A stretch of DNA of 64,000 nt from Candidatus Omnitrophota bacterium (GCA_028699255.1 JAQVUX010000003.1:18654-82653); one strand, 5' to 3'; numbered from the stretch's first letter, positions 11,196 to 49,443 are shown. A program made the numbers and translations. The notes: a model not told the origin generated them from the sequence alone.

Positions 11196-12917
11196 TTGGC
11201 CTATTATATCAAACCTTTTATACTATACTGGACGCTGGCGTTAATATATTTTCTGCTCATCAGGTCTTATTCAAAAGAGGCGATGCGGAAAACGCTGAGC
11301 CGTTTTATCCCGCAGGCAATCATTTGCCAGCTGGTGTACTGGTTGCTGATATTCAGGATATCAATAGATAAACTCAATCCGTTTGTGTTGGGCGGAAGGG
11401 GTATATACGAAGTTTACGCGAAAGTATATTTTTTTATCATGATGGGTATCTTTACCGCTTATGTTGCAAAGAAGATAAGAAATATTTTTAAGGGCCGGGA
11501 AGAGGCTATGATCTATTCTCCCGCGCTTTTTTTATTTTTTTATGCGGCATATTCTCTGTTTGCCAACGCCCAATATACCCACGCCGCCGCTTTTATATTC
11601 CTATTTATTTTAGTGGTTATGATAAAGCCGGGCCTTGGAATCTCCGGTACCGCGTCGGGCTTTAAAGAGGTGTTTTATAAAAAAGAATATATATATGTCA
11701 TTATTATATTTGCCGCGGCATTTACCATGAAATTTCTTTTCTATGAAAGGCTACTGCACATGGCCGGCGACAGGTTTCTTATGGCGAGTGACGACGGGCT
11801 TACGTACGCGCCGTATGCGCTCGACTGGGCGCACGGCAGGATTCCGGAGAACGGCACCTACTGGGGCGGATTCGGATACTGGGTATTTTTAGGCAGTATA
11901 TACAGAATATTCGGAGACTGCAATCATCTGGCCATGGCGCTCATACAGTCTTTAATGGGCGCGTCCGTTCCTGTAGCGGTATTTTATATTGCGAAAACCG
12001 TATTTTCCCGACCTGCCGCTTTCATCGCCTCGGCCCTGACGGCGCTCGACCTGAACCTCACATTTCTTTCCACGGTAATAGGTATGGAGGCGCTGTATAT
12101 CCCCATGTTCTATCTGAGCTTGTCGGCCCTGACGGTATTTTTCTGCCGGCAGGGAACAAAGAAATCTCTCTATGCGGCGGGCATTGGCATCCTTTTCGGT
12201 TTCGCGAACGTCGTAAGGGGGGAGCTCGTTTTTTTTGCGGTGATCACGGCCGTCTTTATCCCGGTATTTTTCGCAAAACAAAACGGCCTGCGCCGTGCGG
12301 CGGTAATAGGAACTATTTTTTTGGCAGGATTTTTTATGCCGCTTACATTGCATGCCGTGAGAAACCACGCGAATTACGGCAAGTTTACGTTTTCTTCCGG
12401 CCAGGCCAAGGCGTGTTTTAAAAAGGCCGCCCATGGCATAACGGAAAATGAAAAGTTGCACAACATGGGATTCAACCCCTTCGAGAGCCCGGAACGTTCG
12501 GTCGAGACGTTTAAATCCAGGCCGGGCGATGTCGCGGGGCTGTTATTTAATGGTTTCTGTAAACGCGCCGCGCTATTTCTTTTTATCCCGAACTTCGGCA
12601 CTTTTGACCCTTTGATACTGATAAATCCCGGTAGCGGATATAAATATCATTACTCCCTCTATCTTTTATTTTATGGGTATATTCTCGTCGCGCTCGGCGC
12701 TGTCTTTGCCTTTATGGATAGAAAGGCCATATTTATCAAGACGCTTTTGGTCTCGTTCATATTTTCTCTGGTATTGATATACGGCGCGATATATGTCACT
12801 AATGCCAGACATAGAGGGGTGGCGATACCGATATTTTATTCCTTTCTCGGTTACGGCGCGGCCGTTTTATACGGGCGCATAAAACACTATGAAAAAAGTA
12901 TTACTCGTAAAGCCTAA
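11196..12917 (+). CDS. GT-C fold membrane glycosyltransferase (ArnT/PMT-like, GT39/GT83-type), paralog of 47641..49443
   Basis: Polytopic membrane protein, DD motif in loop (LMASDDGLTY), clear paralogy with 47641 ORF (shared blocks VIGMEALYIP, FIPNFGTFDP, NPGSGY, NARHRGV). Confidence 0.6.
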   Translation: MAYYIKPFILYWTLALIYFLLIRSYSKEAMRKTLSRFIPQAIICQLVYWLLIFRISIDKLNPFVLGGRGIYEVYAKVYFFIMMGIFTAYVAKKIRNIFKGREEAMIYSPALFLFFYAAYSLFANAQYTHAAAFIFLFILVVMIKPGLGISGTASGFKEVFYKKEYIYVIIIFAAAFTMKFLFYERLLHMAGDRFLMASDDGLTYAPYALDWAHGRIPENGTYWGGFGYWVFLGSIYRIFGDCNHLAMALIQSLMGASVPVAVFYIAKTVFSRPAAFIASALTALDLNLTFLSTVIGMEALYIPMFYLSLSALTVFFCRQGTKKSLYAAGIGILFGFANVVRGELVFFAVITAVFIPVFFAKQNGLRRAAVIGTIFLAGFFMPLTLHAVRNHANYGKFTFSSGQAKACFKKAAHGITENEKLHNMGFNPFESPERSVETFKSRPGDVAGLLFNGFCKRAALFLFIPNFGTFDPLILINPGSGYKYHYSLYLLFYGYILVALGAVFAFMDRKAIFIKTLLVSFIFSLVLIYGAIYVTNARHRGVAIPIFYSFLGYGAAVLYGRIKHYEKSITRKA

Positions 12918-15042
12918 GGACGAATACTCATACGCGGTGATACCGAGCCTCGGGCTCGGGTATCTTGCCGCTTCTTTAAGGAAAAAAGGTTTTGAGCCGC
13001 ACATAATGGATTTGAATAAGCCCGGCTTGAGCGTTGCGGCTTTCGAAAAATATATGGCGGAGCATTCTTTTCCGGTTGTGGGCTTGCAGGTATATACCAG
13101 CAGTATCCGTAGCGCTAACGACGTCGCGGCTATCTCGCGCAGGGTCAATAAAGACACGGTTATAATAGCCGGCGGTCTGCATCCTTCCGGCGACCCGGAG
13201 CACGCCCTGCGGAGCATTCCCGATGTCGATTGTCTCGTCGTAGGTGAAGGCGAGAATGCGATCGCGGCTATCGCGATGTTGTCGAGAAAGGATATGCCGT
13301 TTGCCCTCGAAGGAATCAAGAATACCGCGTTCAGGAGGCCCGACGGTAAAATCATGGTTGGCCCCCTCGAGACGATAGAGGATTTGGAGGATGTGCCGAT
13401 GCCGGCGTGGGACCTTATCGACCCGAGGACATACGGGATATCGCCGCATGGCACATTTTCGCGGTCGTATCCGGTCGCTCCTATAATAACTTCGAGAGGA
13501 TGTCCTTACGCGTGCACGTTTTGCGCGGCGTTCAGGATATTCGGCAGAAAAGTGCGCCGGAGAACGGTTGGGAGTGTTCTCGACGAGATATCGTTTCTGC
13601 GCAATGAATACGGCGTGAGGGAGTTCCATATAGAGGACGATAATTTTACGATCGAGAAAGATTATGTCATGCGGTTCTGCAAAGGCATCAAGGAGCGGTC
13701 GCTCGAGATATGGTGGGCCTGCCCTAACGGCATCCGTATAGACAAAGTCGACGCCGAGATGCTCGCCGCGATGGAGTCCTCGGGATGTTATTCGGTGGCG
13801 CTCGGGATAGAGTCCGGCTCCTCCAGGGTGCTCGGGATGATGAGAAAGAGCCTGAGGGCCGAAAGCGTGGGCGCCATGGTTGACATGATAAAACGTAATT
13901 CGCGCATGAGCGTCACGGGTTTTTTCCTTATAGGGTATCCGGGCGAGACCGTCGATGATATCAAGAAAACGCTCGAGCTTTCCCGGAAGCTCAAGCTCGA
14001 TAAGGCGAGCTTCTCCCCGGTGATGCCGATACCGGGAAGCCAGATATACGGCGAATGGAAGAAGCGCCTCGGGGGCCGCGCTGTTTCATGGGAGAAGTTC
14101 CTGTATTACCAGATAGTGCCTTTTGTCTCCGATATTCCGCCGGCGCTATTGTCGAAATATCTAAAAAAGGCAGTCGTGGGTTTTTACATGCGGCCCAGAG
14201 TAATCATGGGGCTCCTGCGGGAGATAAAGACACAAGATCAGATAAAGGCGCTGTTTAAAAGGGCGTGGACTATATTTTTCGGCAGTACGCTTGCCCGCGG
14301 CGCCGATGGAGGCGAAAAGATGTTGAAAAAATACAAGAGGTATCTATATCCGGTAAAGGCTTTTGGCGAATGGGTGTCAGCGTCTTTTGCCGGGGCGCTG
14401 GTCAGGATGGCAAATGGCGGCAGGATCGGCCGTTACATAAAGTCGCATGATGTAAAGAAACTCCACCTTGGCGCAGGTTCCAATATGCTGGAGGGGTGGT
14501 GTAACACCGATATAAATCCAAAGATGTCCGACGGTGTTTTTTTGGACGCGCGCAGGCGTTTCCCGTTTGTCGACGGTACGTTCGATTACATATTCAGCGA
14601 GCACATGCTTGAGCACCTGGAATTGAAGGATGGCATTCGCATGCTGGGCGAGTGTTTCAGGATACTCAGGCCGGGCGGCAGAATACGCATTTCAACCCCA
14701 GACCTCCGGTATCTTATAGAGCTCTATAATTCGTCAAAGACCGATGTGCAAAAGCGTGAGATTACAAGGATAGTCGATATGATATTCCCGGATGTCGCTA
14801 TCTATCAGGATACATTTGTCATAAATAATTTTTTCAGGAGCTGGGGGCATAAATTTATTTACGATTATAAAGTGCTTAAAGAGTTGATGTCCAGGGTTGG
14901 GTTTACGAATATCATAAACTGCGGCGTAGGAGAATCTGCGGATGAAAACCTGCGTAATCTCGAATCTCATGGAAAACATGTATCGGATGAGATAAATAAA
15001 TTACAAACCTTCGTTGCCGAGGGCCTTAAACCTTATGCCTGA
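12889..15042 (+). CDS. Cobalamin-binding (class B) radical SAM enzyme fused to C-terminal class I SAM-dependent methyltransferase domain
   Basis: N-terminal B12-binding domain (VLLVKP...LGLGYLAASL), radical SAM CxxxCxxC (RGCPYACTFCAA), C-terminal MT motifs LHLGAGSNMLEGW and LRPGGRIRISTPD. Confidence 0.8.
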   Translation: MKKVLLVKPKDEYSYAVIPSLGLGYLAASLRKKGFEPHIMDLNKPGLSVAAFEKYMAEHSFPVVGLQVYTSSIRSANDVAAISRRVNKDTVIIAGGLHPSGDPEHALRSIPDVDCLVVGEGENAIAAIAMLSRKDMPFALEGIKNTAFRRPDGKIMVGPLETIEDLEDVPMPAWDLIDPRTYGISPHGTFSRSYPVAPIITSRGCPYACTFCAAFRIFGRKVRRRTVGSVLDEISFLRNEYGVREFHIEDDNFTIEKDYVMRFCKGIKERSLEIWWACPNGIRIDKVDAEMLAAMESSGCYSVALGIESGSSRVLGMMRKSLRAESVGAMVDMIKRNSRMSVTGFFLIGYPGETVDDIKKTLELSRKLKLDKASFSPVMPIPGSQIYGEWKKRLGGRAVSWEKFLYYQIVPFVSDIPPALLSKYLKKAVVGFYMRPRVIMGLLREIKTQDQIKALFKRAWTIFFGSTLARGADGGEKMLKKYKRYLYPVKAFGEWVSASFAGALVRMANGGRIGRYIKSHDVKKLHLGAGSNMLEGWCNTDINPKMSDGVFLDARRRFPFVDGTFDYIFSEHMLEHLELKDGIRMLGECFRILRPGGRIRISTPDLRYLIELYNSSKTDVQKREITRIVDMIFPDVAIYQDTFVINNFFRSWGHKFIYDYKVLKELMSRVGFTNIINCGVGESADENLRNLESHGKHVSDEINKLQTFVAEGLKPYA

Positions 15043-16471
15043 CAAAGTATTATTGATTATGCCAAAAATAGGCATGGGGAGTTTTGATTTTGGTATCCCC
15101 AATGAACCTCCTGTGGGCCTTGCTTACATAGCGGCAATATTAAAAAGACATTCCGTTGTTTTTAAGGTTATAGATATGCGCCTTGGATATTCCTTCGACG
15201 CCGTAAAAGAGATAGTCGCGGCTTACAAACCTACCGTTATAGGCGTAAGTTATTGGTCTCTTGAGCGAAGCAAGACGCAGGCGCTGATAAAGGCCGTAAA
15301 GGCTATTGCCAGTGTGCCGATAGTCATAGGCGGGCCGCATGTTTCATCGGTAAGGAAAGAGAGCCTCGAAGAAACCGACGCCGAATATGCTGTTAAGGGC
15401 GAAGGCGAATTTACCATCATCGAACTTTTAGGTTTCTTACGCGGTGATAATGTTAAATTGGAAGATATAAATGGCCTTATCTTCAAAAGAGGTGGGGATA
15501 TTTTTGAGAACCCCGATAGAGAACCCAATAAAAACCTGGATGATCTCCCGTTTCCTGCGTATGAAGATTTTGAAACAGCGCGGTATGTAAGAAAGAACAG
15601 GATAAATATCGCTACCTCGCGCGGTTGTCCATACGGATGCAATTATTGTGCCGTCAGGTTGACCATGGGCAGGAATTTCCGCCCTCGTTCTCCGCAGAAT
15701 GTTGTAGATGAGCTCGCGCACTGGAACCGGTTGGGCTACGGGGAATTTCAATTTGTGGACGATTGTTTTACTTTCGACATGGCCCGTGCCGGGGATATAT
15801 GCGATCTCATAATAAAACGTGGTTTAAAAATAGACTGGTTCCTGGATAACGGTATACGGGTGGATAGGGTCAGCGAATCTTTGCTTAAAAAAATGAAAGC
15901 CTCCGGTTGCAGGATAGTAATGTTTGGCGTTGAGAGCGGGGATGATGGCATATTGGCCAGGATGGGTAAGGGGATAAAGATACGCCAGGCGGAAGAGTCG
16001 GTGCGGATGGCAAAGAATGCCGGCATAGAATACGTCGGAGCGACTTTTATAATAGGGCATCCGGGCGAAAATCTGAATATGATTCGGGAGTATATGAAAA
16101 AGATCAGGAAATGGCCCGCGGATAAAATAAATTTCTACAATCTCGTACCGTATCCGGGAACGGAAGTATTTGAGTGGGTAAAGAAAAATGCCGTAATGTT
16201 TGACGCTAAAAACAGCTATCTGGACCACCTTTCCTATTATTCCGGTATTCCAATATTCGAAACAAAAGATTTTCCGGCAAAGGACCGGATAAAGGCCCTT
16301 AAGATGGGCAAGCGGCTCACCAAAAGCATAACTTCCAAATATTATACAAAGGTGTTTACAAAAAAATATGGTCCGGTCATAGGTTTTTTGGGCGGCAAGC
16401 TCGTCAATTTTAAGCGGCTTATGGTTATTCTGTCCAACCTTGGGGTAAGTAGCCTCATTAAAAAAATATAG
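15035..16471 (+). CDS. Cobalamin-binding (class B) radical SAM enzyme (longest ORF starts 15014; ATG 15035 gives 8-nt overlap with upstream gene)
   Basis: B12-binding N-terminus (KVLLIMPK...VGLAYIAAIL), radical SAM motif SRGCPYGCNYCAV. Confidence 0.8.
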   Translation: MPDKVLLIMPKIGMGSFDFGIPNEPPVGLAYIAAILKRHSVVFKVIDMRLGYSFDAVKEIVAAYKPTVIGVSYWSLERSKTQALIKAVKAIASVPIVIGGPHVSSVRKESLEETDAEYAVKGEGEFTIIELLGFLRGDNVKLEDINGLIFKRGGDIFENPDREPNKNLDDLPFPAYEDFETARYVRKNRINIATSRGCPYGCNYCAVRLTMGRNFRPRSPQNVVDELAHWNRLGYGEFQFVDDCFTFDMARAGDICDLIIKRGLKIDWFLDNGIRVDRVSESLLKKMKASGCRIVMFGVESGDDGILARMGKGIKIRQAEESVRMAKNAGIEYVGATFIIGHPGENLNMIREYMKKIRKWPADKINFYNLVPYPGTEVFEWVKKNAVMFDAKNSYLDHLSYYSGIPIFETKDFPAKDRIKALKMGKRLTKSITSKYYTKVFTKKYGPVIGFLGGKLVNFKRLMVILSNLGVSSLIKKI

Positions 16472-16487
16472 CGGGTATATTGCCTTA

Positions 16488-16496
16488 TGCTATAAT
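16488..16496 (+). promoter_or_regulatory. Extended -10 promoter element tgcTATAAT upstream of ugd; RBS aaggat 16510-16515
   Basis: Perfect TATAAT preceded by TGn, 26 nt upstream of ATG 16522 with AGGA RBS at proper spacing. Confidence 0.45.
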
Positions 16497-16521
16497 ATTG
16501 TCTCCAATAAAGGATAAAAAT

Positions 16522-17817
16522 ATGAACATATGTATAATCGGGGCCGGATACGTAGGATTGGTATCGGGCGCGTGTTTCGCGGATCTTGGTAATACCGTAA
16601 TATGTGTTGATAACGACGAAAAGAAAATAAAACGCCTCAAGGCCGGAGCCGTACCCATATACGAACCCGGTTTAGAAGAGATGATAAAACGCAATGTAAA
16701 AGAGGGGCGTTTATCATTTACGCCCAGGATCAAAGAGGGTGTGAAAAAATGCGAGGTTATATTTATCGCTGTAGGCACTCCTTCCAGGTGTAACGGCGAG
16801 GCCGATTTAAGCTTTGTCGAGAACGTTTCCCGCGAGATAGCCGTTTCGATGCCGTCCTACCGTCTTGTCGTAGAGAAATCAACCGTTCCCGTGAATACGG
16901 GTGAATGGGTTGAGCATACCATAAAGGTTTTTAATAAGAGGAATATTAAATTCGACGTTGCTTCCAACCCGGAATTTTTAAAGGAAGGCTCGGCTATAAA
17001 AGATTTCATGAACCCGGACAGGGTAGTCGTTGGCGTTAAATCCAAAAAAGCCCGCGACATACTGGTGGAACTCTACAAACCGCTCAAAGCTCCGATAGTC
17101 GTAACCGACATTAAATCCGCCGAGATAATCAAGCACGCCTCAAATTCCTTTTTAGCCACGAAGATATCTTTTATAAACGCCATATCCGACATCTGTGACA
17201 AGGTGGGCGCGGATATAGTTGAGGTGGCCAAGGGCATAGGCCTCGACAGGCGGATAGGCAAAGATTTTCTGAACGCCGGCATAGGGTTCGGCGGTTCGTG
17301 TTTCCCGAAGGATCTGTCCGCCTTTATCCGTATAGCCGATAAGGTAGGATATAATTTCGGCCTGTTAAAAGAGGTGCAGGAGATAAATAGTTATCAAAAA
17401 AGCCTTATTATAAAGAAGATAGAATCGTTATTATGGAACCTGCCGAAGAAGACGATAGGTGTGCTCGGTCTGGCGTTCAAGCCGGATACCGACGACATAA
17501 GGCAGTCGCCCGCGATCGATATAATATCCGTTCTCCTTAAAGAGGGCGCGCATATAAAAACATATGACCCGGAGGCGATGGAGAAAGCCAGGCGGGAAAT
17601 GCCCCGCAATGTGAAGTTTTGCCGGGACGCTTACTCCGTGGCTAAGAATAGCGATTGCCTTCTTCTCGCGACGGAGTGGAACGAATTCAAAGAACTCGAT
17701 TTTAAAAAGATAAAGAAGATCATGAGACAGCCGATACTCATAGACGGCAGGAACATATATGACCCGGCGGAAATGAAGAAACTCGGGTTTACCTATATCG
17801 GCATAGGGAGGAAATAG
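16522..17817 (+). CDS. ugd: UDP-glucose 6-dehydrogenase
   Basis: MNICIIGAGYVGLVSG Rossmann N-terminus, catalytic GFGGSCFPKD motif, ~430 aa; longer ORF from 16480 runs through the promoter so ATG 16522 preferred. Confidence 0.85.
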   Translation: MNICIIGAGYVGLVSGACFADLGNTVICVDNDEKKIKRLKAGAVPIYEPGLEEMIKRNVKEGRLSFTPRIKEGVKKCEVIFIAVGTPSRCNGEADLSFVENVSREIAVSMPSYRLVVEKSTVPVNTGEWVEHTIKVFNKRNIKFDVASNPEFLKEGSAIKDFMNPDRVVVGVKSKKARDILVELYKPLKAPIVVTDIKSAEIIKHASNSFLATKISFINAISDICDKVGADIVEVAKGIGLDRRIGKDFLNAGIGFGGSCFPKDLSAFIRIADKVGYNFGLLKEVQEINSYQKSLIIKKIESLLWNLPKKTIGVLGLAFKPDTDDIRQSPAIDIISVLLKEGAHIKTYDPEAMEKARREMPRNVKFCRDAYSVAKNSDCLLLATEWNEFKELDFKKIKKIMRQPILIDGRNIYDPAEMKKLGFTYIGIGRK

Positions 17818-17820
17818 CGG

Positions 17821-18267
17821 GTGATAGACGGCGTGAAGGTCAGAAAATTGAAGATCATTCCCGATGAGCGCGGCCGGCTCATGGAAATATTAAGATGCGA
17901 TGACGAAGTTTTTAAGAAATTCGGACAGGTCTATATGACGACGGCGTTTCCCGGCGTCGTGAAGGCGTGGCATTACCATAAAAAACAGGACGATAATTTT
18001 ACATGTATTCACGGGAAAATGCGGCTCGCTTTATATGATGCCCGGGAAGATTCTCCGACTTACAAAGAGGTAAACGATTTTATCATATCGCTCGACGATC
18101 CGATGCGCGTAACGATACCAAAAAATATTTATCACGGCTTCAAATGCATAAGCGATTGCGAAGCGCTGGTGATAAATACCGTGACCGAATCGTATAATTA
18201 CAAAGATCCGGACGAATACAGGCTGGACGCCTACAAAAACGACATTCCGTACGACTGGAGGAAGTAA
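17821..18267 (+). CDS. rmlC: RmlC-like cupin (dTDP-4-dehydrorhamnose 3,5-epimerase or FdtA-type ketoisomerase), GTG start
   Basis: WHYHKKQDDNFTCIHGKMRLALYDAREDSPTY matches RmlC-like HxH...Q...DxR..SPT block; short (148 aa). Confidence 0.55.
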   Translation: MIDGVKVRKLKIIPDERGRLMEILRCDDEVFKKFGQVYMTTAFPGVVKAWHYHKKQDDNFTCIHGKMRLALYDAREDSPTYKEVNDFIISLDDPMRVTIPKNIYHGFKCISDCEALVINTVTESYNYKDPDEYRLDAYKNDIPYDWRK

Positions 18268-18270
18268 CGT

Positions 18271-18999
18271 ATGGGTATGAAGGGTATAATATTGGCCGGA
18301 GGACTTGGGAAGCGCCTGCATCCATTAACCAAGATAACGAATAAACATCTCCTGCCGGTATTTTCCAAACCGATGATCTACTACCCCATCCGGACACTTG
18401 TCGACGCCGGCATAAGGGATATCCTGATCGTGACCGGCGGTATGCATGCCGGAGAGTTTCTGCGGTTACTCGGTAACGGCAAAGAGTTCGGCCTGGAGCA
18501 TATAAATTATACTTACCAGGAGGGCGAGGGAGGCATAGCCGAGGCGTTGAAGCTGGCGAAGCATTTTGCGGAGGATGACAGAATAGTCGTTATCCTGGGT
18601 GACAACATAATAGAGAAGAGCATAAAGAAGGCCGTTGATGATTTCAGCGCTCAGCCGTCGGGCGCCAAGATATTACTGAAGAAGGTGGCTGACCCACAGC
18701 GGTTTGGCGTCGCGGCTTTAAAGGACGGCAGGATACTCGGCATCGAGGAGAAACCAAAAAAACCGAAATCGGACTATGCCGTTACGGGAATATACATGTA
18801 CGACAATAAAGTGTTCGATATCATAAAAACTCTGAAGCCTTCGGGCCGCGGAGAGCTTGAAATAACAGACGTTAATAACGCTTATATAAAACGCGGGACG
18901 CTGACATACAGCATCCTCGACGGATGGTGGACCGACGCCGGGACATTCGAATCGCTTCTGCGCGCGAATAACCTGGTAGCGAAGAGAGAATCGAAATGA
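18271..18999 (+). CDS. rmlA: Glucose-1-phosphate thymidylyltransferase-like sugar nucleotidyltransferase (short form)
   Basis: GIILAGGLGKRLHPLTKITNKHLLPV nucleotidyltransferase signature; operon position before rmlB. Confidence 0.7.
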   Translation: MGMKGIILAGGLGKRLHPLTKITNKHLLPVFSKPMIYYPIRTLVDAGIRDILIVTGGMHAGEFLRLLGNGKEFGLEHINYTYQEGEGGIAEALKLAKHFAEDDRIVVILGDNIIEKSIKKAVDDFSAQPSGAKILLKKVADPQRFGVAALKDGRILGIEEKPKKPKSDYAVTGIYMYDNKVFDIIKTLKPSGRGELEITDVNNAYIKRGTLTYSILDGWWTDAGTFESLLRANNLVAKRESK

Positions 19000-19955: not shown

Positions 19956-19970
19956 CCTTCAGTTATATTC

Positions 19971-20066: not shown

Positions 20067-20082
20067 CAGTAATGTCTCCGCT

Positions 20083-20961: not shown

Positions 20962-20964
20962 TTT

Positions 20965-40985: not shown

Positions 40986-42463
40986 AAATCATGCTCATAT
41001 ATCCGCTTCTTTCCAGGCGGCGGGCCAAGGTCGATGAGAACAAACAGTTTTGGCCGCCGTTGGGGCTTGCGTATATAGCTTCCGTATTAGAGAGGGGCGG
41101 CCATGAGGTTGAGATATTGGACAGGGATGTGATATTGCGCAAAAATAATCTCGATTTCGAAAAGGGGGACGCTTTTATACTCGATAGGATCAGGCAATTT
41201 TCTCCGGGCATATTAGGCATAAGCGTAACAACGCCCAATATGCCGGATGTCGCTTACCTGTCGAACCTGATAAAAAGCTCTTTTAAAAAACCTATGATAG
41301 TCGTGGGCGGGCCGCATGTATCAGGCGAGCCGATTTTGACTATGAAAGAGGCGCCTTCATGCGATGTAGCGGTAAGAGGAGAAGGAGAGTTTACGCTATT
41401 GGAATTGGCCGACGGGAAGTCCTTGACGGACGTATCGGGTATCTCTTACAGATCCGCCTCTTCCGCAGTTTCTAATATCGATAGGATGCCTATCGCCGAC
41501 ATAGACGAGCTTCCGCTCCCAGCCCGCCATCTTTTAGATATGAAGCTATATACCCGGCCGAGCCGTTTTACGAGCAGAAACTTAAGCTTACGCACGACGT
41601 CGATCTTTACGGCACGCGGATGTCCCTACAGATGCAATTTTTGCGCCGGTCCGCTTGTATTTAGCGGCAAGGTAAGATTCCATTCTCCGGCGAGAGTTAT
41701 AAAAGAGATAGAGGAGCTTATTACGAAATATGACGTCGAAGCGCTCTACTTTGCCGAAGACATGTTCCTAAGTTCGAAGAAACGCGCCGAGGACATCCTG
41801 AGCCTTTTTATAGAAAAAGGTATAAATAAAAAGATAAAATGGATCGCGCAGGCAAAGGCGAATATTATAACGAAAGAACTGCTCGAACTTATGAAGGAAT
41901 CTGGTTGCGTAGGCGTCGAGTATGGATTTGAATCCGGTTCGCAAAGGGTGCTTGACCTGATGAACAAAAAGCTGAGCATAGAAGATAGCGTTAAGGCGGC
42001 GGCCCTCACAAGGCGTTCGCACCTGCGTTTCCAGGCGAATATCATCGTGGGTTATCCGGGAGAGCGTATCGAAGATTTTAGACAGACTACGTCATTCATA
42101 AAGAAGATACGTGCCAATATGATAGGCTTCAACCTCTTTATGCCGCTTCCCGGCACGCCAAGTTATGAAAAACTGAAGACGAACGGCACTCCTCTACCCA
42201 GATGGGAAGATGTCGGCGACCAGGAATCACCCGGTACAAATTATGCCGACATGCCCGAAGGTGTTTTCGAAAAGATGTATTACGAGGCGCGGCTCAAGAC
42301 CATATTACCAATAAACTTATGGAACTTTATACTCGATAACGCCGCGCATCCGTTGCGGCTTCTCAAAGTAGGGATGACCCAATTTGGCGGAGTGCTGGTC
42401 AAGACACTGCGCAGTATATCGAAGCTGAACGGTATAAATAAAAAGATCAGGGCGGGGCGATAG
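40982..42463 (+). CDS. Cobalamin-binding (class B) radical SAM enzyme
   Basis: B12-binding N-terminus (KIMLIYPLL...PPLGLAYIASVL), radical SAM ARGCPYRCNFCAG. Confidence 0.8.
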   Translation: MKIMLIYPLLSRRRAKVDENKQFWPPLGLAYIASVLERGGHEVEILDRDVILRKNNLDFEKGDAFILDRIRQFSPGILGISVTTPNMPDVAYLSNLIKSSFKKPMIVVGGPHVSGEPILTMKEAPSCDVAVRGEGEFTLLELADGKSLTDVSGISYRSASSAVSNIDRMPIADIDELPLPARHLLDMKLYTRPSRFTSRNLSLRTTSIFTARGCPYRCNFCAGPLVFSGKVRFHSPARVIKEIEELITKYDVEALYFAEDMFLSSKKRAEDILSLFIEKGINKKIKWIAQAKANIITKELLELMKESGCVGVEYGFESGSQRVLDLMNKKLSIEDSVKAAALTRRSHLRFQANIIVGYPGERIEDFRQTTSFIKKIRANMIGFNLFMPLPGTPSYEKLKTNGTPLPRWEDVGDQESPGTNYADMPEGVFEKMYYEARLKTILPINLWNFILDNAAHPLRLLKVGMTQFGGVLVKTLRSISKLNGINKKIRAGR

Positions 42464-43677
42464 TGAGCGAGCAAAGAGCGCTTTACATAACTTACGACGG
42501 TGCGCTGGAGCCGATAGCGCAGTCCCAGGTATTGAATTATATACGCCGTCTGGCTAAAGATGGTTTTAAATTTTATCTCGTTTCTTTTGAAAAGAAAGAA
42601 AATCTGCGCGACGAGGCATATCTTTCCAGAATGGCTGAGGGTATGGCCAGAAACGGGATAGTGTGGCTACGTCTTAAATACCATGCGAGGCCGAAAGTAT
42701 TGGCAACATTTTTTGATATTATCCTGGGTGGTATATTCTGTTTCTTCGTAGTTTTGAAAAATAGGATAGGGATCATACATGTGAGGGCAGAAATGCCGGC
42801 CACTATGGCATTGCCGGCTCTGCTTATACCCGGGATAAGGTTTATCTATGACAGGCGCGGCGTGATGGCATACGATTATGTGGAGGGTGGGCTATGGCCG
42901 AAAAACAGGGCGATGACAAAGTTTTTATGCAGGTCTATAAATGCTCTCGACAGGGTATTCCTGAATCGCGCGGATCATGTGGTAGTCCTGTCGAGGAAGA
43001 TGAAAGATTTCCTCGGGGAGAATTTTTTTAAGTCGAAGAAAAACGATAAGGTGAGAGTTATACCATGCTGTGTTGACGTAGATAAGTTTGTGCCTGCCCG
43101 GCCGGACGCCTCAGGCGATCGCGGCAGTTTTACACTCGTGTACAGCGGTTCTCTCGGGACATGGAATATGCTTAATGAGATGGTGGATTTTTTTAGCGAA
43201 TTAAAAAGGCATAAAAATAACGCGCATTTTTCCATAGTTACGCAATCGCCTGTCCGGATGGTCGAGGATACCGTCGGCGGCCGTTTGAAACGTGAGGATT
43301 ACACTGTCCGCAGTGGCCGGTACGAAGAGATGCCCGGGTATATTGCCGAGGCGGATGCCGGGATCATATTCAGGATACCGGGTTTTGCTAAGACCGCGGC
43401 TTCTCCTACGAAATTCGGTGAGTATCTGGCGTGCGGGGTACCGGTAGTGATAAATTCGGGGATAGGAGACACGGAAGAACTGGTTCGCGGCGGCAGGATA
43501 GGAGTGATCGTCGATAGATTTTGTGAGGATGATTACAGGTCGGCGGCTCTGGAATTACTTAAAATGCACGCTGAAGGCAAGTTTTTACGGCAACGGTGCA
43601 GAGATGCGGGCGTTAAGGAGTTTTCGCTCGCCGGCGGCGTGGAAAAATATCTGGAAATATACAGGAGCTTGAGATGA
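42463..43677 (+). CDS. Glycosyltransferase family 4
   Basis: C-terminal GT4 block PTKFGEYLACGVPVVINSGIGDTEELV. Confidence 0.7.
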   Translation: MSEQRALYITYDGALEPIAQSQVLNYIRRLAKDGFKFYLVSFEKKENLRDEAYLSRMAEGMARNGIVWLRLKYHARPKVLATFFDIILGGIFCFFVVLKNRIGIIHVRAEMPATMALPALLIPGIRFIYDRRGVMAYDYVEGGLWPKNRAMTKFLCRSINALDRVFLNRADHVVVLSRKMKDFLGENFFKSKKNDKVRVIPCCVDVDKFVPARPDASGDRGSFTLVYSGSLGTWNMLNEMVDFFSELKRHKNNAHFSIVTQSPVRMVEDTVGGRLKREDYTVRSGRYEEMPGYIAEADAGIIFRIPGFAKTAASPTKFGEYLACGVPVVINSGIGDTEELVRGGRIGVIVDRFCEDDYRSAALELLKMHAEGKFLRQRCRDAGVKEFSLAGGVEKYLEIYRSLR

Positions 43678-44771
43678 AGATACTATTTTTAGTTCCATAT
43701 CCTTCCGAAGGAGCCTCCAATCGCATAAGGGTTGAACAGTTTATTCCTTACCTGAATTCCGCCGGGATAGTGACCAGAGTCAGACCATTTGTGAACAAAA
43801 AATTTTACGAGGTATTATATCTTCCGAAACATTATATGAAAAAAATATTCTGGTTTTCCCTGTGTACTTTTAACAGGATTCTGGATATCGCCAGAGCAAT
43901 AAAATATGACGTGATATTTATACACAGAGAGGCCTATCCTTTGGGCGGAGCTATTATCGAAAGCATACTGCACATGATGGGCAAGCCGATAGTATATGAT
44001 TTCGACGACGCTATATACCTGCCGAACACAAGCGAGCATAATGTCTATATCGAACGGCTGAAGAATCCGCGTAAGACAGAGCGTATAATAAAAATGGCGA
44101 ATCTGGTTATCGCGGGTAATGGCTATCTAAAAAAATATGCGGAACATTATAGCGCTAACGTGCATATAATCCCGAGTTCCGTCGACACCGCGCGTTATAC
44201 TCATCCCGTGATGCCGGGTTCGGACGATAAGGTCGTTATAGGATGGATTGGCAGTGATACGACAAAGCGTTTTCTTCGCGTTATTAAAGAGGCGCTCGAA
44301 GAGCTATCGGGCCGGTATCCTAAAATGTTCCTTAAGGTGGTAGGAGCGTCGCCTTTCAATTCAAAGCTTCCGAATGTTATAAATAAAAGATGGGCCATGG
44401 AAGACGAGATAACCGATTTGCAAAGTTTCGATATAGGCGTTATGCCAATGCCCAACAATGAATGGACCCGGGGGAAATGTGGATTTAAAGCGCTTCTCTA
44501 TATGTCATGCGGCGTGCCGGTTGTCGCGGCAAATGCCGGCGTCAACGCGGAGATCATAAAAGACGGCGATAATGGTTTTCTCGCTTCCAACACCAGAGAA
44601 TGGATAAAGAAACTCACCATTCTTATAGAGGATAAGGAGCTTCGCCGTAAAATGGGAGACAGGGGCAGGCAGACCGTGGAGAGGTTGTATTCGGTAAAGA
44701 GCAATGCCCCGAAGTTTGTGGCGCTTGTATCTGGTATCGCGAAATCGGACTCAAAAGAGGTGTCCGGGTGA
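43674..44771 (+). CDS. Glycosyltransferase family 4
   Basis: FKALLYMSCGVPVVAANAGVNAEIIKDGDNGFLA GT4 C-terminal signature. Confidence 0.7.
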   Translation: MKILFLVPYPSEGASNRIRVEQFIPYLNSAGIVTRVRPFVNKKFYEVLYLPKHYMKKIFWFSLCTFNRILDIARAIKYDVIFIHREAYPLGGAIIESILHMMGKPIVYDFDDAIYLPNTSEHNVYIERLKNPRKTERIIKMANLVIAGNGYLKKYAEHYSANVHIIPSSVDTARYTHPVMPGSDDKVVIGWIGSDTTKRFLRVIKEALEELSGRYPKMFLKVVGASPFNSKLPNVINKRWAMEDEITDLQSFDIGVMPMPNNEWTRGKCGFKALLYMSCGVPVVAANAGVNAEIIKDGDNGFLASNTREWIKKLTILIEDKELRRKMGDRGRQTVERLYSVKSNAPKFVALVSGIAKSDSKEVSG

Positions 44772-46171
44772 AAATATTACTGATAAACCCGTCGCAGAGA
44801 GCCGCATACGGCAAGTTTACCGATGTGCCGACGTTCTTTCCTATGGGGCTCGGGTATCTGGGCGCCTCACTGGAGAAGGGCGGGCACGAAGTTACTCTTG
44901 TGGATATGGATGCCCAGGGTCTTACCGAAGCGGGCCTTAAAGAAATACTCGATCGTACAGGATATGGCCTTGTAGGCATAACCGCGACTTCACCGACGGT
45001 GAAGAGTGCCTTCAAATTGGCCGCGTTCGTGAAATCCGGCGCGAATGCCCGCGTAGTGCTGGGCGGCGTTCATCCGACGCTTTTTCCTGATCATGTATTC
45101 GAATGTAATGATGTCGATTTTGCGATAAGAGGTGAGGGTGAAAATGCAATATTAGAATTAGCCGAGGCTCTGGGAAAGGATGCGGCGCTGGGTGGAATAT
45201 TGGGGCTATCGTTCAGGGGCCCGGAAGGTATTTTACATAATCCGCCGCGACCCCTGATAGAAGACCTGGACAGCCTGCCTTTTCCCATAATGCATAAACT
45301 GAACAAAAACCTTTATTCTTATCCCAATTCTCTCATGAAAAGGATAGCGCCTATATTGACATCGAGGGGTTGCCCGGGCCGATGCACATTTTGCTGTACA
45401 AAAAAGACTTTTGGGACGCGTATAAGATACAGGAGCGCTGAAAACGTAGTGGCCGAGCTCGCCTATCTTAAAGATAATTTCGGCACTCAGGAAATACATG
45501 TATGGGACGACAATTTTATTACCAATAAAAAATTCATAGTAGAGTTAAAGGATTTGATGAGAAAACGCGGCCTCTCTTTCAAGATATGTCTTGTTAACGG
45601 CGTCCGGGTCGATTTTTTTACGGAAGAGATGGCGGGATATTTGAAGGAGATGGGGGTTTATTCAATCGCTTTTGGCATCGAATCCGGGAGTCAGAGGGTT
45701 CTTGACGGAGTAAAGAAGGGCATAAAACTCGAAACTTCTATTAAAGCTGTGGCTATGGCCAGGAGATTTGGATTTGAGACATGGGGATTTTTCATGCTGG
45801 GCCTGCCCGGGGATGATAAGCAGACGATAAAAGAGACGATAGATTTTTCCGTGAAACTCGACCCTGATATAGCTAAGTTCCATATATTAAAGCCGTTTCC
45901 CGGCACAGAGGTTTATGACAAACTTAAAGAAGACGGCTGTTTATTGAGCATGGATTTTGACAGGTATGGCATACATACCGGGCCAGTCCACAGACTGCCG
46001 GGACTGACAGAGGACGATATGATCAAAGCGCAGAAGGCGGCGTACAAGGCATTCTATTTCAGGCCCAAAAAGATATTGAGCCAAATAAATAAACTTAAAA
46101 GTTTTGAAAGAGTAAAATTCCTGGCCAAGGCATCGTTTAATATGGTGAAAATATTAAGAGGTGACGTATGA
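44768..46171 (+). CDS. Cobalamin-binding (class B) radical SAM enzyme
   Basis: B12-binding N-terminus (KILLINPS...PMGLGYLGASL), radical SAM SRGCPGRCTFCCT. Confidence 0.8.
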   Translation: MKILLINPSQRAAYGKFTDVPTFFPMGLGYLGASLEKGGHEVTLVDMDAQGLTEAGLKEILDRTGYGLVGITATSPTVKSAFKLAAFVKSGANARVVLGGVHPTLFPDHVFECNDVDFAIRGEGENAILELAEALGKDAALGGILGLSFRGPEGILHNPPRPLIEDLDSLPFPIMHKLNKNLYSYPNSLMKRIAPILTSRGCPGRCTFCCTKKTFGTRIRYRSAENVVAELAYLKDNFGTQEIHVWDDNFITNKKFIVELKDLMRKRGLSFKICLVNGVRVDFFTEEMAGYLKEMGVYSIAFGIESGSQRVLDGVKKGIKLETSIKAVAMARRFGFETWGFFMLGLPGDDKQTIKETIDFSVKLDPDIAKFHILKPFPGTEVYDKLKEDGCLLSMDFDRYGIHTGPVHRLPGLTEDDMIKAQKAAYKAFYFRPKKILSQINKLKSFERVKFLAKASFNMVKILRGDV

Positions 46172-46899
46172 AGCTTTCTGTAGTAATGCCGGCGCATAAT
46201 GAGGAAGATTGCATCCAGCAGGCGGTAACTGAAGTGGTCGAAGAGCTGGTGAAGAGCGCGATAGAGTATGAGCTGGTACTGGTAAATGACAACAGTACCG
46301 ACTCTACGCCTGAGGTAGCGAGGAAACTCCAGGCAAAGTTTAAAGGGATAAAGATTATCGACAGGACGCCGCCCGGCGGGTTCGGCAGGGCGGTACGGGA
46401 CGGGCTCGACGCGGCTACCGGGGGCGCGGTCGTGATAGTAATGGGGGATATGTCGGACGACCCAAAGGACATAGTCAGATATTTCCGCAAGATCGAAGAG
46501 GGGTACGATTGCGTGTTCGGATCCCGGTTTATAAAAGGAAGCATAGTCAAAGACTATCCACCGCTTAAACTTTTCATAAATCGCCTCGCGAATAATTTTA
46601 TCCGTACACTTTTTTTTGTAAAACAAAACGATATTACCAATGCCTTTAAGATATATCGGAGGGGAGTGATAGAAGCGTGCCGACCGTTTTTGGCGCCATA
46701 TTTTAACATTACCGTCGAGATACCCTTAAAAGCTGTAAACCGAAAGTTTAAAGTGGCACAGATGCCGATTAGCTGGTATGGCCGTAAGTCAGGTGTCTCC
46801 AAATTGCGCATGAAAGAGATGGGCAGAAAATATTTATTTACGGTTTTGTATGTTTGGTTGGAGCGAATACTGCTGAAGGATGAACTTAGGAGACCCTGA
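46168..46899 (+). CDS. GT2 polyprenol-phosphate glycosyltransferase (Dpm1/ArnC/GtrB-like, soluble form)
   Basis: MKLSVVMPAHNEEDCI, LVNDNSTDST, MGDMSDD (DxD-region), 243 aa. Confidence 0.65.
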   Translation: MKLSVVMPAHNEEDCIQQAVTEVVEELVKSAIEYELVLVNDNSTDSTPEVARKLQAKFKGIKIIDRTPPGGFGRAVRDGLDAATGGAVVIVMGDMSDDPKDIVRYFRKIEEGYDCVFGSRFIKGSIVKDYPPLKLFINRLANNFIRTLFFVKQNDITNAFKIYRRGVIEACRPFLAPYFNITVEIPLKAVNRKFKVAQMPISWYGRKSGVSKLRMKEMGRKYLFTVLYVWLERILLKDELRRP

Positions 46900-47644
46900 C
46901 CATATGCAGAATAAAATAGAAGAAGCGAAATTTTTCAATAATTTTGGAGATGATTATGATGTATTGACCGAAAAAGCGTATAGCAGGATACTAGATTCAT
47001 TCAGTAGGGTGACACATCCTACTGAGGGCGATAGAATAATTGATCTCGGATGCGGTAGCGGCGCTTTTACGGCGAGATTGGCGAAGCGCTATCCGAACGT
47101 GAATATTGTGGGAGTCGATATTTCATCGGTGCTTATAGATAAGGCGAAAAAAGCAAATCCCAACATAAAATACGCCGTTCTGGATATCGAGCACCTGCCC
47201 TACCCCGCAGAGACATTTGATATTGCTGTATTCAGCGGAGTCCTACACCATTTTATTGATATGTCACCGGTTTTGAAGGAGGCGTACAGGGTTTTAAAAA
47301 AAGATGGTAGATGTTTTGCTTACGATCCCAATAATGACAATCCTTTCATGTGGTTATATAGGAACAGAAAATCGCCGTTTTTTTCTTCAAAGGGGATAAC
47401 TTCCAACGAACGTCTTTTATCGCGCAAAGATTTGCGGGTGGCGTTCATGAAGGCTGGGTTTGCGTCCGATGTGTTCGCGATAGGTGGTATAACTTATAGA
47501 TATGTGAACGGCCCATCGGCGCTTTTACCAGTATACAATTTTTTTGAAGAACTATCCATAGTAAATCCGCTTATCCGCCGGATAGGGTCTTTTCTGATCT
47601 CGGTAGCCAGGAAAAATATTAAAAATAAGGTCGACACAATATGA
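46880..47644 (+). CDS. Class I SAM-dependent methyltransferase
   Basis: IIDLGCGSGAFTARL motif I, VLKKDGRCFAYDPN. Confidence 0.7.
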   Translation: MNLGDPDHMQNKIEEAKFFNNFGDDYDVLTEKAYSRILDSFSRVTHPTEGDRIIDLGCGSGAFTARLAKRYPNVNIVGVDISSVLIDKAKKANPNIKYAVLDIEHLPYPAETFDIAVFSGVLHHFIDMSPVLKEAYRVLKKDGRCFAYDPNNDNPFMWLYRNRKSPFFSSKGITSNERLLSRKDLRVAFMKAGFASDVFAIGGITYRYVNGPSALLPVYNFFEELSIVNPLIRRIGSFLISVARKNIKNKVDTI

Positions 47645-49443
47645 AGAAGATGCTTTTAGCGGCATTCGTCATTACAGCTGTAACATACTTAGCGGTTTTC
47701 GATGGGATATTTTATATAAAGAATATATTTAGCGCTGGTGTTATATTCAACGTGCCTTTACCTTATATTATAGTAACGGTCATGTTCATTTTTTTGTATG
47801 CACGGCTGATGAATAAAAAGATAAAAAATATAGCATATGCCGCGATCGCGGCCGCTGTGTATATATCGTTATTTTATCTTTTGACCGATATGAAGCTGGG
47901 GATGATGAAGAATGACCCATTCGGCGGGAATAGGGGTATCTTCGGGCTCTACGGCATATTCTATTATACGGTAGTGACGGCCGCCTTCTCTTTAATCGCA
48001 GGGGTTTCGTTATCGTGGCGGCTGAAACCGGTATTTTGCCTGCCTGCCGTTTTTTCGTTTGTCGTCGTCGAGTCGATGCTCCTGGTAAATGCCCTTTGGT
48101 TTTATGCGTTTACTTTTATAATCTTTTTTGTTTTAGGGGTTTTATTGAACCGGTCCCGGTTTTTCGTAAAAGAGATATGGCGCCGCGCACCGGGATTTTT
48201 AAAAGACGAAAGAATATTTTTAATTGCCCTGTTAATAGCCGCGATAGCGATCAGATATTTCTGGGGCATGCGGCTCCTGGGAATAACCGGCGCCAATTTC
48301 ATAATCGCCAGCGATGACGGTGTCTCCTACGATAGATTTGCGACCATATTGGCTGGAGGGAACATCATTCCGAAAGAAGATGCCCTGTACGTCAGCGGAT
48401 TCGGTTACTGGTACTTTCTGGGTGCCGCCTACAAAATCTTTGGCGTGCACAACTTTAAGGCGATAGTGCTCATACAGTCGCTTTTGGGGGCCATGGTACC
48501 CATCATCACCTATCGTATCGGGAGGGCGATATTTGGTAATAGATCGGCTCCGTCCATAGCCGCCGCCTTTGTGGCAATCGATATGAACCTTATATTCCTT
48601 TCCGTTGTTATAGGGATGGAGGCGATATACATACCGGTGGTTTTATGCGCGATATGGTATATGGTGCGCCTCTTTAGTCGTATCTATAATATATCTACGA
48701 AGGAGGCTTTTCTTGCAGGTTGTCTTTTCGGCCTCGCGCAGATAATAAGGCCTGAACTACTATTGTTCCCGTTCGTGCTGGCGGCATTGATATGCATTTT
48801 TGTAAAAAACGGCATGAAATTGAAAAAGGCGTTCAGGGTGATCGTGTTTTTATTCGCAGGATTCCTTATTCTCATATCGGTGCAGGGGTTTATTACCTAT
48901 CGAAACTACGGCGTATTTTATGTCGTGCCGTCCACCGGTTTGCAAGGAGCGTTTTCAGGAGGTATTTCCGATGGGCAATGCATTGATGAAAATAAGACGC
49001 TGGACAGTATGGGTTTCAATCCATTCAAGGATATGAGAGGTTCGATAGCGGTGTTTTTCGGCCATCCGGCCGAAGTGGCGCGATTAATGACGTTCGGTTT
49101 TTTAAAGCGGTTTATAATATTTTTCTTCAAACCTAATTTCGGCACCTTCGATCCATTCTATCTTGTAAATCCGGGAAGCGGATATGTATTCGGATTCCCG
49201 CTGTTCGTGCAGTTTTACGGACTGTTATTCACGATATTCGGGTTATTCTCAGCGTTTCTTAAAAAAGAAAATATACCGGCCAAGACTGCGCTTGTATCAT
49301 TCGTTGCCCTGATAGCGTTCCAATACAGTTTTGTATGGGTACTGAATGCCAGATATAGAGGCGTTGTCCTCCCGGTAATAATGTTGTTCATGGCATACGG
49401 GATAACGGTGTTTTATAAAAAAGCCAAAGAGAATCTGTCATGA
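47641..49443 (+). CDS. GT-C fold membrane glycosyltransferase (ArnT/PMT-like), paralog of 11196..12917
   Basis: Polytopic; IIASDDGVSY DD motif; shared blocks with 11196 ORF (VIGMEAIYIP, FKPNFGTFDP, NPGSGY, NARYRGV). Confidence 0.6.
   Translation: MKKMLLAAFVITAVTYLAVFDGIFYIKNIFSAGVIFNVPLPYIIVTVMFIFLYARLMNKKIKNIAYAAIAAAVYISLFYLLTDMKLGMMKNDPFGGNRGIFGLYGIFYYTVVTAAFSLIAGVSLSWRLKPVFCLPAVFSFVVVESMLLVNALWFYAFTFIIFFVLGVLLNRSRFFVKEIWRRAPGFLKDERIFLIALLIAAIAIRYFWGMRLLGITGANFIIASDDGVSYDRFATILAGGNIIPKEDALYVSGFGYWYFLGAAYKIFGVHNFKAIVLIQSLLGAMVPIITYRIGRAIFGNRSAPSIAAAFVAIDMNLIFLSVVIGMEAIYIPVVLCAIWYMVRLFSRIYNISTKEAFLAGCLFGLAQIIRPELLLFPFVLAALICIFVKNGMKLKKAFRVIVFLFAGFLILISVQGFITYRNYGVFYVVPSTGLQGAFSGGISDGQCIDENKTLDSMGFNPFKDMRGSIAVFFGHPAEVARLMTFGFLKRFIIFFFKPNFGTFDPFYLVNPGSGYVFGFPLFVQFYGLLFTIFGLFSAFLKKENIPAKTALVSFVALIAFQYSFVWVLNARYRGVVLPVIMLFMAYGITVFYKKAKENLS

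Follow-up and report, generated by a model that had tools for sequence, protein, structure and literature searches.

We analysed a 64,000-nucleotide stretch of DNA from a Candidatus Omnitrophota bacterium (GCA_028699255.1 JAQVUX010000003.1:18654-82653; the whole stretch is called the window below), which encodes five proteins, B1 to B5, that combine a B12-binding domain with a radical S-adenosylmethionine (SAM) domain and lie among genes for glycan assembly. Two of them, B1 and B5, are encoded beside a polyprenyl-phosphate-sugar synthase (the donor synthase) and a membrane glycosyltransferase of the GT-C type, and the same partners accompany their orthologues in distant phyla. In known three-component systems of periplasmic glycosylation, a polyprenyl-phosphate sugar is made in the cytoplasm, sometimes epimerised on the lipid, flipped, and transferred by a GT-C enzyme (PMC11127046). 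Our results point to such systems carrying an extra radical SAM enzyme here, by which envelope glycans would undergo a radical tailoring step not described before. We give about even chances to the reading that B1 and B5 are dedicated fourth components that tailor lipid-linked monosaccharide donors before they are flipped, most likely by C-methylation.

Class B radical SAM enzymes have been described chiefly from the biosynthesis of antibiotics, cofactors, ribosomally synthesised and post-translationally modified peptides, and membrane lipids. A preliminary description of this DNA had put the arrangement forward as a candidate undescribed pathway, and we found no published account of it in the searchable literature, outside which most subscription-journal papers lie, on radical SAM or B12 enzymes together with O-antigen, polysaccharide, GT-C, undecaprenyl phosphate or Omnitrophota; two 2026 reviews, on B12-dependent radical SAM enzymes (PMC12931638) and on radical SAM enzymes in lipid modification (PMC13459092), mention neither envelope glycans nor polyprenyl-linked sugars. 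If the pairing with donor synthases and GT-C enzymes holds, it adds a tailoring step to the recently defined three-component systems, predicts new C-branched or deoxy sugars on largely uncultivated anaerobes, including bacteria of the Candidate Phyla Radiation and DPANN archaea, and offers enzymologists compact modules of three or four genes open to direct test. The results also sort the many B12-binding radical SAM genes of anaerobe glycan loci into orthologous groups, each with distinct, predictable partners.

Gene modules around B1 and B5

In module 1 (Table 1), the product of the UbiA-family gene at 10302 scores 257.6 bits against NCBIfam model NF008977 (cutoff 234), and its sole PDB matches are decaprenyl-phosphate phosphoribosyltransferase structures (8j8j/8j8k, E 2e-33). 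The GT-C gene at 11196 starts 3 nucleotides (nt) past the UbiA gene and encodes about 10 hydrophobic segments with a PMT_2 domain (Pfam, 28.5 bits against a cutoff of 26.1); a PDB sequence search was uninformative for it. In 7/7 contexts, orthologues of B1 (49-58% identity) have UbiA and a PMT_2 GT-C adjoining. This arrangement was found in four Omnitrophota-type loci (L051, L052, L054 and L055) and in the close relative of the window (L056), and the UbiA stop abuts the radical SAM start in three loci. The unit is minimal in a metagenome-assembled genome (MAG) of Thermoleophilia (L053), where one radical SAM gene, two GT-C genes and UbiA stand amid ribonucleotide reductase, tRNA synthetase and ScpAB genes.

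B1 itself ends in a fused class I methyltransferase domain, seen only in the window (12889-15042) and in the 96% identical relative L056 (10001-12154), whereas orthologues of B1 (49-62% identity, about 468 amino acids, aa) have no such fusion. The closest relatives of the fused domain are standalone proteins of 230-290 aa in glycan loci of many phyla. As a candidate for a conserved partner the fused domain was rejected: because it is not orthologous to the methyltransferases that flank UbiA-radical SAM pairs in relatives, the fusion is not the mark of a conserved methyltransferase partner.

In module 2, the genes for B5, the short GT2 (GT2b, 46168), a methyltransferase and a GT-C-like protein overlap by 4-20 nt, the overlap between B5 and GT2b being 4 nt. 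GT2b has 243 aa and no C-terminal transmembrane (TM) helices, and its PDB matches are dolichol-phosphate mannose synthase 5mlz (E 2.7e-22), GtrB 5ekp and ArnC. The membrane protein at 47641, with 12 hydrophobic segments, has no Pfam or PDB match of its own and matches the LA_3751/2 glycosyltransferase family weakly; it shares 29% identity over 404 aa with a PMT_2 protein of L052, and a hidden Markov model (HMM) built partly from it recovers PMT_2 proteins in other loci. Orthologues of B5 (46-48% identity) have a short GT2 or UbiA and a GT-C alongside in four other lineages, represented by Omnitrophica, Lentisphaerae and Patescibacteria MAGs and a Pacearchaeota genome. In Lentisphaerae (L059) a three-gene unit of radical SAM, PMT_2 and GT2 lies between toxin-antitoxin and housekeeping genes, and in Pacearchaeota (L057), the only locus with an adjoining PAP2 phosphatase, UbiA and PAP2 stand in place of GT2.

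For pooled counts, HMMs built from the module neighbours were run over the collected loci in a window of 2.5 kb around the radical SAM gene; the B1-like set comprised non-redundant loci with at least 38% identity and at least 2 kb of flank, and relatives with at most 35% identity served as the control. A GT-C and/or a donor synthase was present at 13/15 B1-like loci and 5/5 B5-like loci, as opposed to 0/7 loci of distant relatives, and both kinds of donor synthase, UbiA and short GT2, occur with each of the two clades. When the weak GT-C matches were rechecked by Pfam, five of the seven reached or came close to the PMT_2 cutoff, a sixth scored 18.7 bits and the last gave no hit; some of the rechecked proteins bear C-terminal carbohydrate-binding modules or tetratricopeptide (TPR) repeats. 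The partner association is specific to the B1 and B5 clades.

The gene mix recurs in other Omnitrophota and in other phyla and is no chance juxtaposition. The recurring unit itself differs from the one first described, a B12-type radical SAM gene with a methyltransferase and any glycosyltransferase: for the genes at 12889 and 44768 it is a polyprenyl-phosphate-sugar synthase, a radical SAM enzyme and a GT-C, which would therefore place the radical step on a lipid-linked monosaccharide donor and not on each residue of the chain.

Family, fold and ancestry of the five radical SAM proteins

All five proteins (12889, 15014, 32131, 40982 and 44768) have the domains and Cys blocks attributed to them at the outset, scoring 57-81 bits for the N-terminal, Rossmann-type B12-binding domain (PF02310, cutoff 32.1) and 69-98 bits for Radical_SAM (PF04055, cutoff 29.5). 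Their Cys motifs read SRGCPYACTFC, SRGCPYGCNYC, SRGCPHRCAFC, ARGCPYRCNFC and SRGCPGRCTFC, with the CPxxCxxC motif at residues 196-214 across the five. The counterpart of B2 in L056 has a gene call of 478 aa.

The Cys blocks had been taken as a sign of serial duplication, which our comparisons contradict; the block is the generic family motif. Pairwise identity among the five is 27-34%, while other genomes hold orthologues of B1, B3 and B5 at 46-65%, and in a neighbour-joining tree B1 and B5 form sister clades, with B2, B3 and B4 on separate deep branches. On these comparisons the five proteins are best read as old paralogues, not recent duplicates.

None of the five reaches a curated NCBIfam cutoff, in agreement with the view that they lie outside the well-characterised families; membership in HpnJ, BchE, PhpK/Sden_1168, MgmA, HpnR, BzaD, TsrM, KedN5, AprD4 and the ladderane radical SAM family was rejected on this basis. 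The best curated score is that of B5 to HpnJ (221 bits against a cutoff of 578); all others are 45-193 bits (cutoffs 251-775), among them 84-100 bits against the AprD4 family model (cutoff 500). In the PDB sequence search the best match was MgmA, a Csp3 methylase (100-113 bits), followed by AprD4 (72-86 bits).

The AlphaFold model of B5 (44768; mean predicted local distance difference test score 91.5) superposes on AprD4, TsrM, MgmA, CysS, OxsB and TokK with Foldseek E values of 1e-19 to 1e-27, the top match being AprD4 (E 1e-27, TM-score 0.75-0.77). Because AprD4 has the same architecture without cobalamin, a PF02310 match alone does not show cobalamin binding, for which no sequence motif is diagnostic; use of cobalamin by the five proteins is putative. 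An analysis of amphipathic helices and hydrophobic moments in the C-termini of the radical SAM proteins gave nothing decisive.

B2, B3 and B4, which belong to other deep lineages, probably tailor other intermediates. B3 is consistently coupled to GT4, and its family extends across many Omnitrophota at 45-65% identity; the orthologue in the Omnitrophota locus L062 (48% identity) lies directly 3' of a GT4 gene. L062 also holds, in shuffled order, orthologues of the two GT4 genes that follow B4 (GT4c and GT4d) and of the transglutaminase-like gene, together with genes for AsnB, a SPASM radical SAM protein, a Wzx-type protein and one more B12-type radical SAM enzyme, and a block of radical SAM, GT2 and three PMT_2 genes lies upstream of the B3-orthologue region. 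A truncated radical SAM protein of 484 aa at the edge of L052 was considered as a B3 orthologue and rejected. L052 (Logan SRR22388205, 21 kb) carries five or more B12-binding radical SAM genes alongside two PMT_2, UbiA, WecA-like, Wzy_C and GT9 genes; since it is denser in B12-type radical SAM genes than the window, such enrichment is typical of the lineage.

Proposed pathway and competing explanations

In the proposed pathway, dTDP-rhamnose, amino sugars and uronic acids or uronamides would come from soluble enzymes; a lipid-linked oligosaccharide would be built by GT4 and GT2 enzymes and flipped by the Wzx-like protein; and the two intact GT-C enzymes would add periplasmic decorations from polyprenyl-phosphate monosaccharide donors. 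Each donor would arise at the cytoplasmic face, where the sugar would be loaded on polyprenyl phosphate, in module 1 by a UbiA-type phosphoribosyltransferase and in module 2 by a DPM1/GtrB-like GT2; B1 or B5, often along with a class I methyltransferase, would then modify the lipid-linked sugar, and the tailored donor would be flipped and its sugar transferred by the GT-C to the acceptor. Of this scheme, the domain content, the fold, the orthology and the conserved gene neighbourhoods are observed; the substrate, timing and chemistry of the radical step and its use of cobalamin are inferred.

The timing of the radical step rests on the donor synthases. In the UbiA-linked modules tailoring should follow transfer to the lipid, because the only soluble precursor is phosphoribosyl pyrophosphate (PRPP), a central metabolite; the same argument was made for the epimerases of the known system (Kelly et al., PMC11127046). 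Because B1 and B5 are sisters and the type of donor synthase swaps within both clades, the lipid-phosphate sugar is the likely common denominator of their substrates.

Judged by sequence, the enzymes most likely C-methylate an unactivated carbon of the sugar, because MgmA is the closest PDB sequence match and the family is biased toward methylases, the majority of characterised enzymes with this domain pair being methylases (PMC12931638). Formation of a carbocycle of the HpnJ or calditol type is disfavoured because the conserved GT-C needs a surviving anomeric phosphate; an HpnJ-like ring contraction was considered unlikely, as it would abolish the glycosyl-phosphate donor that the GT-C requires.

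Several observations weigh against tailoring of lipid-linked donors by methylation. The top HMM matches of B5, HpnJ and BchE, are not thought to be methylases, and the top structural match, AprD4, is a cobalamin-free sugar diol dehydratase of the same architecture. Neither module has a dedicated donor flippase (GtrA, SMR or MATE) or a phosphoribose phosphatase beside it, and module 1 contains neither a MATE/SMR flippase nor such a phosphatase; the gaps of the window hold no small membrane open reading frames, and its only MOP-family protein is the Wzx-like one (36454). Two well-flanked B1-like loci (L004 and L005) have no partners, the tree was built without bootstrap, and the context sample is small. 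In L013 a B1-like protein is joined to a DegT aminotransferase, a fusion more in keeping with keto-sugar or nucleotide-sugar chemistry; this open reading frame of 899 aa (2331-5030, Omnitrophica WOR_2, MHGH01000009.1) comprises B12-binding, radical SAM and DegT/DnrJ/EryC1 aminotransferase domains and is followed by a short GT2 and another B12-type radical SAM gene.

Some of these observations would suit enzymes that act on the same lipid-linked substrates without being methylases, through AprD4-like diol dehydration, oxidation to a keto sugar, or epimerisation, as an anaerobic counterpart of the DprE1/DprE2 or ORF13 epimerases known from pentofuranose systems, possibly cobalamin-free. We regard this as unlikely, though by no means negligible. 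The structural and second-best PDB sequence matches to AprD4 speak for it, as do HpnJ and BchE at the head of the HMM matches of B5, the fusion in L013 to an enzyme of a keto-sugar-using type, and the minimal Thermoleophilia module, in which UbiA is accompanied by neither DprE1/E2 nor a short-chain dehydrogenase/reductase (SDR) epimerase. MgmA, however, outscores AprD4 in the PDB search, the AprD4 family model is missed by a wide margin, and the characterised enzymes with this domain pair are mostly methylases (PMC12931638).

A second explanation, along the lines of the preliminary description, which we consider rather improbable, keeps C-methylation and moves it to soluble nucleotide sugars or to residues of the growing chain, one radical SAM enzyme per residue, followed by O-/N-methylation by ordinary methyltransferases; adjacency to GT-C would then be incidental. 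B3 and B4 do lie among Leloir GT4/GT2 genes and do not adjoin a GT-C, the fusion in L013 suggests chemistry at the nucleotide-sugar level, and in GT2-linked modules modification could precede lipid loading. Such a scheme nevertheless makes PRPP the target in the UbiA-linked modules, which is unlikely, and incidental adjacency does not explain why the trio of radical SAM, GT-C and donor synthase persists as a minimal unit in distant phyla or why the partners are clade-specific.

It is very improbable that the radical SAM enzymes have a target other than the sugar, such as a protein, a membrane lipid or the polyprenyl carrier, and lie in these loci only because envelope genes cluster in hypervariable islands. 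In its favour, the class B enzymes HpnP and HpnR do modify lipids (PMC13459092), hypervariable loci with lipopolysaccharide (LPS) and capsule glycosyltransferases have been reported in Omnitrophota, and the tight packing on one strand extends through the entire window and takes in the housekeeping genes. Against it, minimal modules of three or four genes with unrelated housekeeping or toxin-antitoxin genes on either side speak for a shared pathway, the pairing is orthologue-specific across bacteria and DPANN archaea, and the DegT fusion favours a sugar substrate.

Tailoring of lipid-linked donors can be extended to a broader reading, to which we assign somewhat less than an even chance: a widespread, hitherto undescribed four-component pathway shared by Omnitrophota, Lentisphaerota, Patescibacteria, Thermoleophilia, Syntrophia-like bacteria and DPANN archaea. 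In this pathway a radical SAM enzyme of the cobalamin type would create a C-C bond on a monosaccharide linked to polyprenyl phosphate, or would recast that sugar by another radical reaction; GT-C enzymes would then bring to the cell surface the sugars of donors that have no nucleotide-sugar equivalent. Lipid-linked ribofuranose would yield, for example, a 5-C-methyl pentofuranose (a 6-deoxyhexofuranose), and a hexose would yield a C-methyl hexose.

As to the acceptor, directly upstream of UbiA (8078-10276) a 732-aa protein is encoded with an LptC/LptA-like N-terminal region and weak similarity to LptD and to the chlamydial CT351 outer-membrane family, which fits a diderm envelope of the Planctomycetota-Verrucomicrobiota-Chlamydiota (PVC) group. 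This LptD-like gene, together with the WecA-like (Glycos_transf_4), Wzy_C and heptosyltransferase (GT9) genes of related Omnitrophota loci, suggests an LPS-type acceptor in Omnitrophota; in Patescibacteria and archaea the acceptor must differ. In L010 (505-6244) and the similar Smithella loci L011, L015, L017 and L019, the B1-like radical SAM gene directly follows a tandem of two or three PMT_2 GT-C genes whose products end in TPR repeats (TMTC-like), which hints at protein acceptors there.

Layout of the locus and comparison with known systems

The window, which holds a conserved Omnitrophota envelope-glycan supercluster of probably two or more operons, contains 57 mapped genes, all on the + strand; their median spacing is -0.5 nt, and 50/56 junctions measure at most 30 nt (Table 1; NCBI proteins MDD3905495 to MDD3905531). 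An independent Logan assembly differs from it by 1 nt over 21.5 kb. It should be noted that packing alone does not define the locus, because the upstream housekeeping genes are equally tightly packed on the same strand. The sole intergenic gap above 100 nt (25322-25819) follows the decayed GT-C gene; since it holds a terminator-like hairpin and then the best promoter-like site of the region, which make 25734-25788 a probable boundary between transcription units, the span from B1 to the GT-C of module 2 probably comprises at least two such units. The decayed PMT_2-like gene (24148-25621; G+C content 38% against about 46% for the window) has the same three-frame split in the independent Logan assembly and resembles a pseudogene, in decay or of recent acquisition, that immediately precedes the only sizeable gap. 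An Rfam scan of the window found no cobalamin riboswitch and no other RNA family.

Table 1. Features of the window and the basis of their assignment (UGDH, UDP-glucose dehydrogenase; ACP, acyl carrier protein)
Feature	Coordinates	Strand	Basis or remark
UbiA-family polyprenyl-phosphate phosphoribosyltransferase (donor synthase, module 1)	10302..11192	+	NCBIfam, PDB, PGAP name
GT-C glycosyltransferase PMT_2 (module 1)	11196..12917	+	Pfam, TM count, homology to PMT_2 of related loci
B1: B12-binding/radical SAM with fused C-terminal class I methyltransferase	12889..15042	+	Pfam, Cys motif
B2: B12-binding/radical SAM, probable start 15035	15014..16471	+	Pfam
UGDH, RmlC (17821-18267), RmlA, RmlB, RmlD, second UGDH, two SDR epimerase/dehydratases	16480..24211	+	
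Decayed GT-C gene, split over three frames	24148..25621	+	PMT_2 match on 24705 fragment; frame inspection
Terminator-like hairpin, then the region's best promoter-like site	25734..25788	+	Consensus match only
DegT aminotransferase, AsnB-type amidotransferase, methyltransferase (28825), two GT4 (29473, 30776)	25819..32134	+	
B3: B12-binding/radical SAM	32131..33585	+	Pfam; start overlaps stop of upstream GT4
286-aa protein (33586), methyltransferase (34418), radical SAM with sub-threshold SPASM (35366)	33586..36445	+	
Wzx-like MOP-family flippase	36454..37935	+	NCBIfam WzxE 89 bits, cutoff 325; at least 8 TM segments
S2: radical SAM/SPASM, probable start 37932	37851..39290	+	SPASM 38.0 bits, cutoff 21.5
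GT2 with two C-terminal TM segments (39298), methyltransferase (40233)	39298..40985	+	
B4: B12-binding/radical SAM	40982..42463	+	Pfam
Two GT4 (42463, 43674)	42463..44771	+	L062 orthologues, 36% and 44% identity
B5: B12-binding/radical SAM (module 2)	44768..46171	+	Pfam, AlphaFold model
GT2b: short GT2, DPM1/GtrB/ArnC-like polyprenyl-phosphate-sugar synthase (donor synthase, module 2)	46168..46899	+	PDB matches
Class I methyltransferase (module 2)	46880..47644	+	Pfam
GT-C-like membrane glycosyltransferase (module 2)	47641..49443	+	Homology and TM segments
Transglutaminase-like protein, N-terminal TM segment	49440..50174	+	Conserved in L062, 36% identity
AcpS, FkbH, ACP, MaoC, SDR, deacetylase, GNAT, MarR-like, cytidylyltransferase, S3 radical SAM/SPASM (56918), DegT, UGDH-like, AsnB, methyltransferase (61883)	50171..62977	+	Downstream decoration genes

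As first described, this is a glycan-assembly locus with an unusual wealth of class-B-type radical SAM genes and with interleaved glycosyltransferases, namely four GT4, two GT2, and two intact and one broken GT-C genes. Other parts of the inventory need adjustment. The flippase is present as a Wzx-like protein, although its WzxE score lies below the cutoff, and there is no Wzy and no WecA/WbaP within the window. Of six class I methyltransferase domains placed in the span, four standalone ones (28825, 34418, 40233 and 46880) and the one fused to B1 lie there, while the sixth (61883) is outside it. Two of three proposed SPASM radical SAM proteins pass the Pfam cutoff of 21.5 bits, S2 (37851) and S3 (56918, 36.2 bits), while that at 35366 remains below it (19.3 bits, E 0.0014). 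A PDB sequence search was uninformative for the protein at 33586.

The remaining genes concern sugar supply and decoration. Three AsnB-type glutamine amidotransferases (113-1999, 26932-28809 and 60215-61879) and three genes of the UDP-sugar dehydrogenase type (16480, 21049 and 58906) suggest uronamide sugars, as in some O-antigens and moenomycin; the sugar-supply set includes two DegT aminotransferases. The cassette of AcpS, FkbH, ACP, MaoC dehydratase and SDR genes, with polysaccharide deacetylase and GNAT genes next in line (50171-53751), suggests that the glycan is decorated with an ACP-borne glyceryl or hydroxyacyl group. The row of cytidylyltransferase, small radical SAM/SPASM and DegT genes (56228-58913), whose best curated matches fall far under the cutoffs, recalls by analogy the logic of BtrN, a radical dehydrogenase, with an aminotransferase, which would give amino sugars without NAD. 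Between an AsnB-type amidotransferase and AccD, a standalone corrinoid protein of 218 aa is encoded (2045-2701; B12-binding_2 and B12-binding domains), of the kind found in methyltransferase systems.

Among known systems, module 1 resembles the pentofuranose system of Citrobacter youngae O1/O2 (Kelly et al. PNAS 2024, PMC11127046) and mycobacterial arabinan synthesis through decaprenylphosphoryl ribose and arabinose (DPPR/DPA) and the Emb/Aft enzymes, in that a UbiA-family phosphoribosyltransferase adjoins a GT-C and auxiliary enzymes are expected to alter the sugar on the lipid before export. The auxiliary enzyme in those systems is an SDR epimerase or DprE1/E2, whereas here it is a B12-binding/radical SAM protein, fused to a methyltransferase in the lineage of the window; module 1 also differs in having no adjoining PRP/PAP2 phosphatase or MATE/SMR flippase and in its PMT_2-like GT-C. 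Kelly et al. (PMC11127046) make no mention of radical enzymes.

Module 2 is comparable to GtrB/GtrC, ArnC/ArnT and Ppm1/Pmt, since GT2b, whose gene stands two genes away from that of the GT-C-like protein at 47641, resembles dolichol-phosphate mannose synthase, GtrB and ArnC. For a lipid-linked monosaccharide that is tailored before it is flipped, ArnD is a precedent. What distinguishes the present module is the radical SAM gene between or beside the pair, kept across phyla, the shortness of GT2b and its lack of C-terminal TM helices; no GtrA-like flippase was found.

The HpnI/HpnK/HpnJ pathway, which converts hopanoid glucosamine to a cyclitol ether, and calditol synthase are alike in that a GT2 loads the sugar on a lipid and a radical SAM enzyme of the B12-binding type remodels the lipid-linked sugar (PMC13459092). 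B5 falls so far below the cutoff of HpnJ, its top curated model, that it is not HpnJ; a different chemistry is to be expected because ring contraction to a carbocycle would remove the donor that the GT-C needs. With GenK, GenD1, Fom3 and AprD4 of antibiotic pathways, the proteins described here share domain architecture and fold. The targets of these enzymes are carbohydrate carbons, and the reactions are C-methylation and diol dehydration. Their similarity to B1-B5 is at the superfamily level only, and they act on soluble intermediates of secondary metabolism, whereas the enzymes described here belong to envelope-glycan loci equipped with the machinery for lipid-linked donors.

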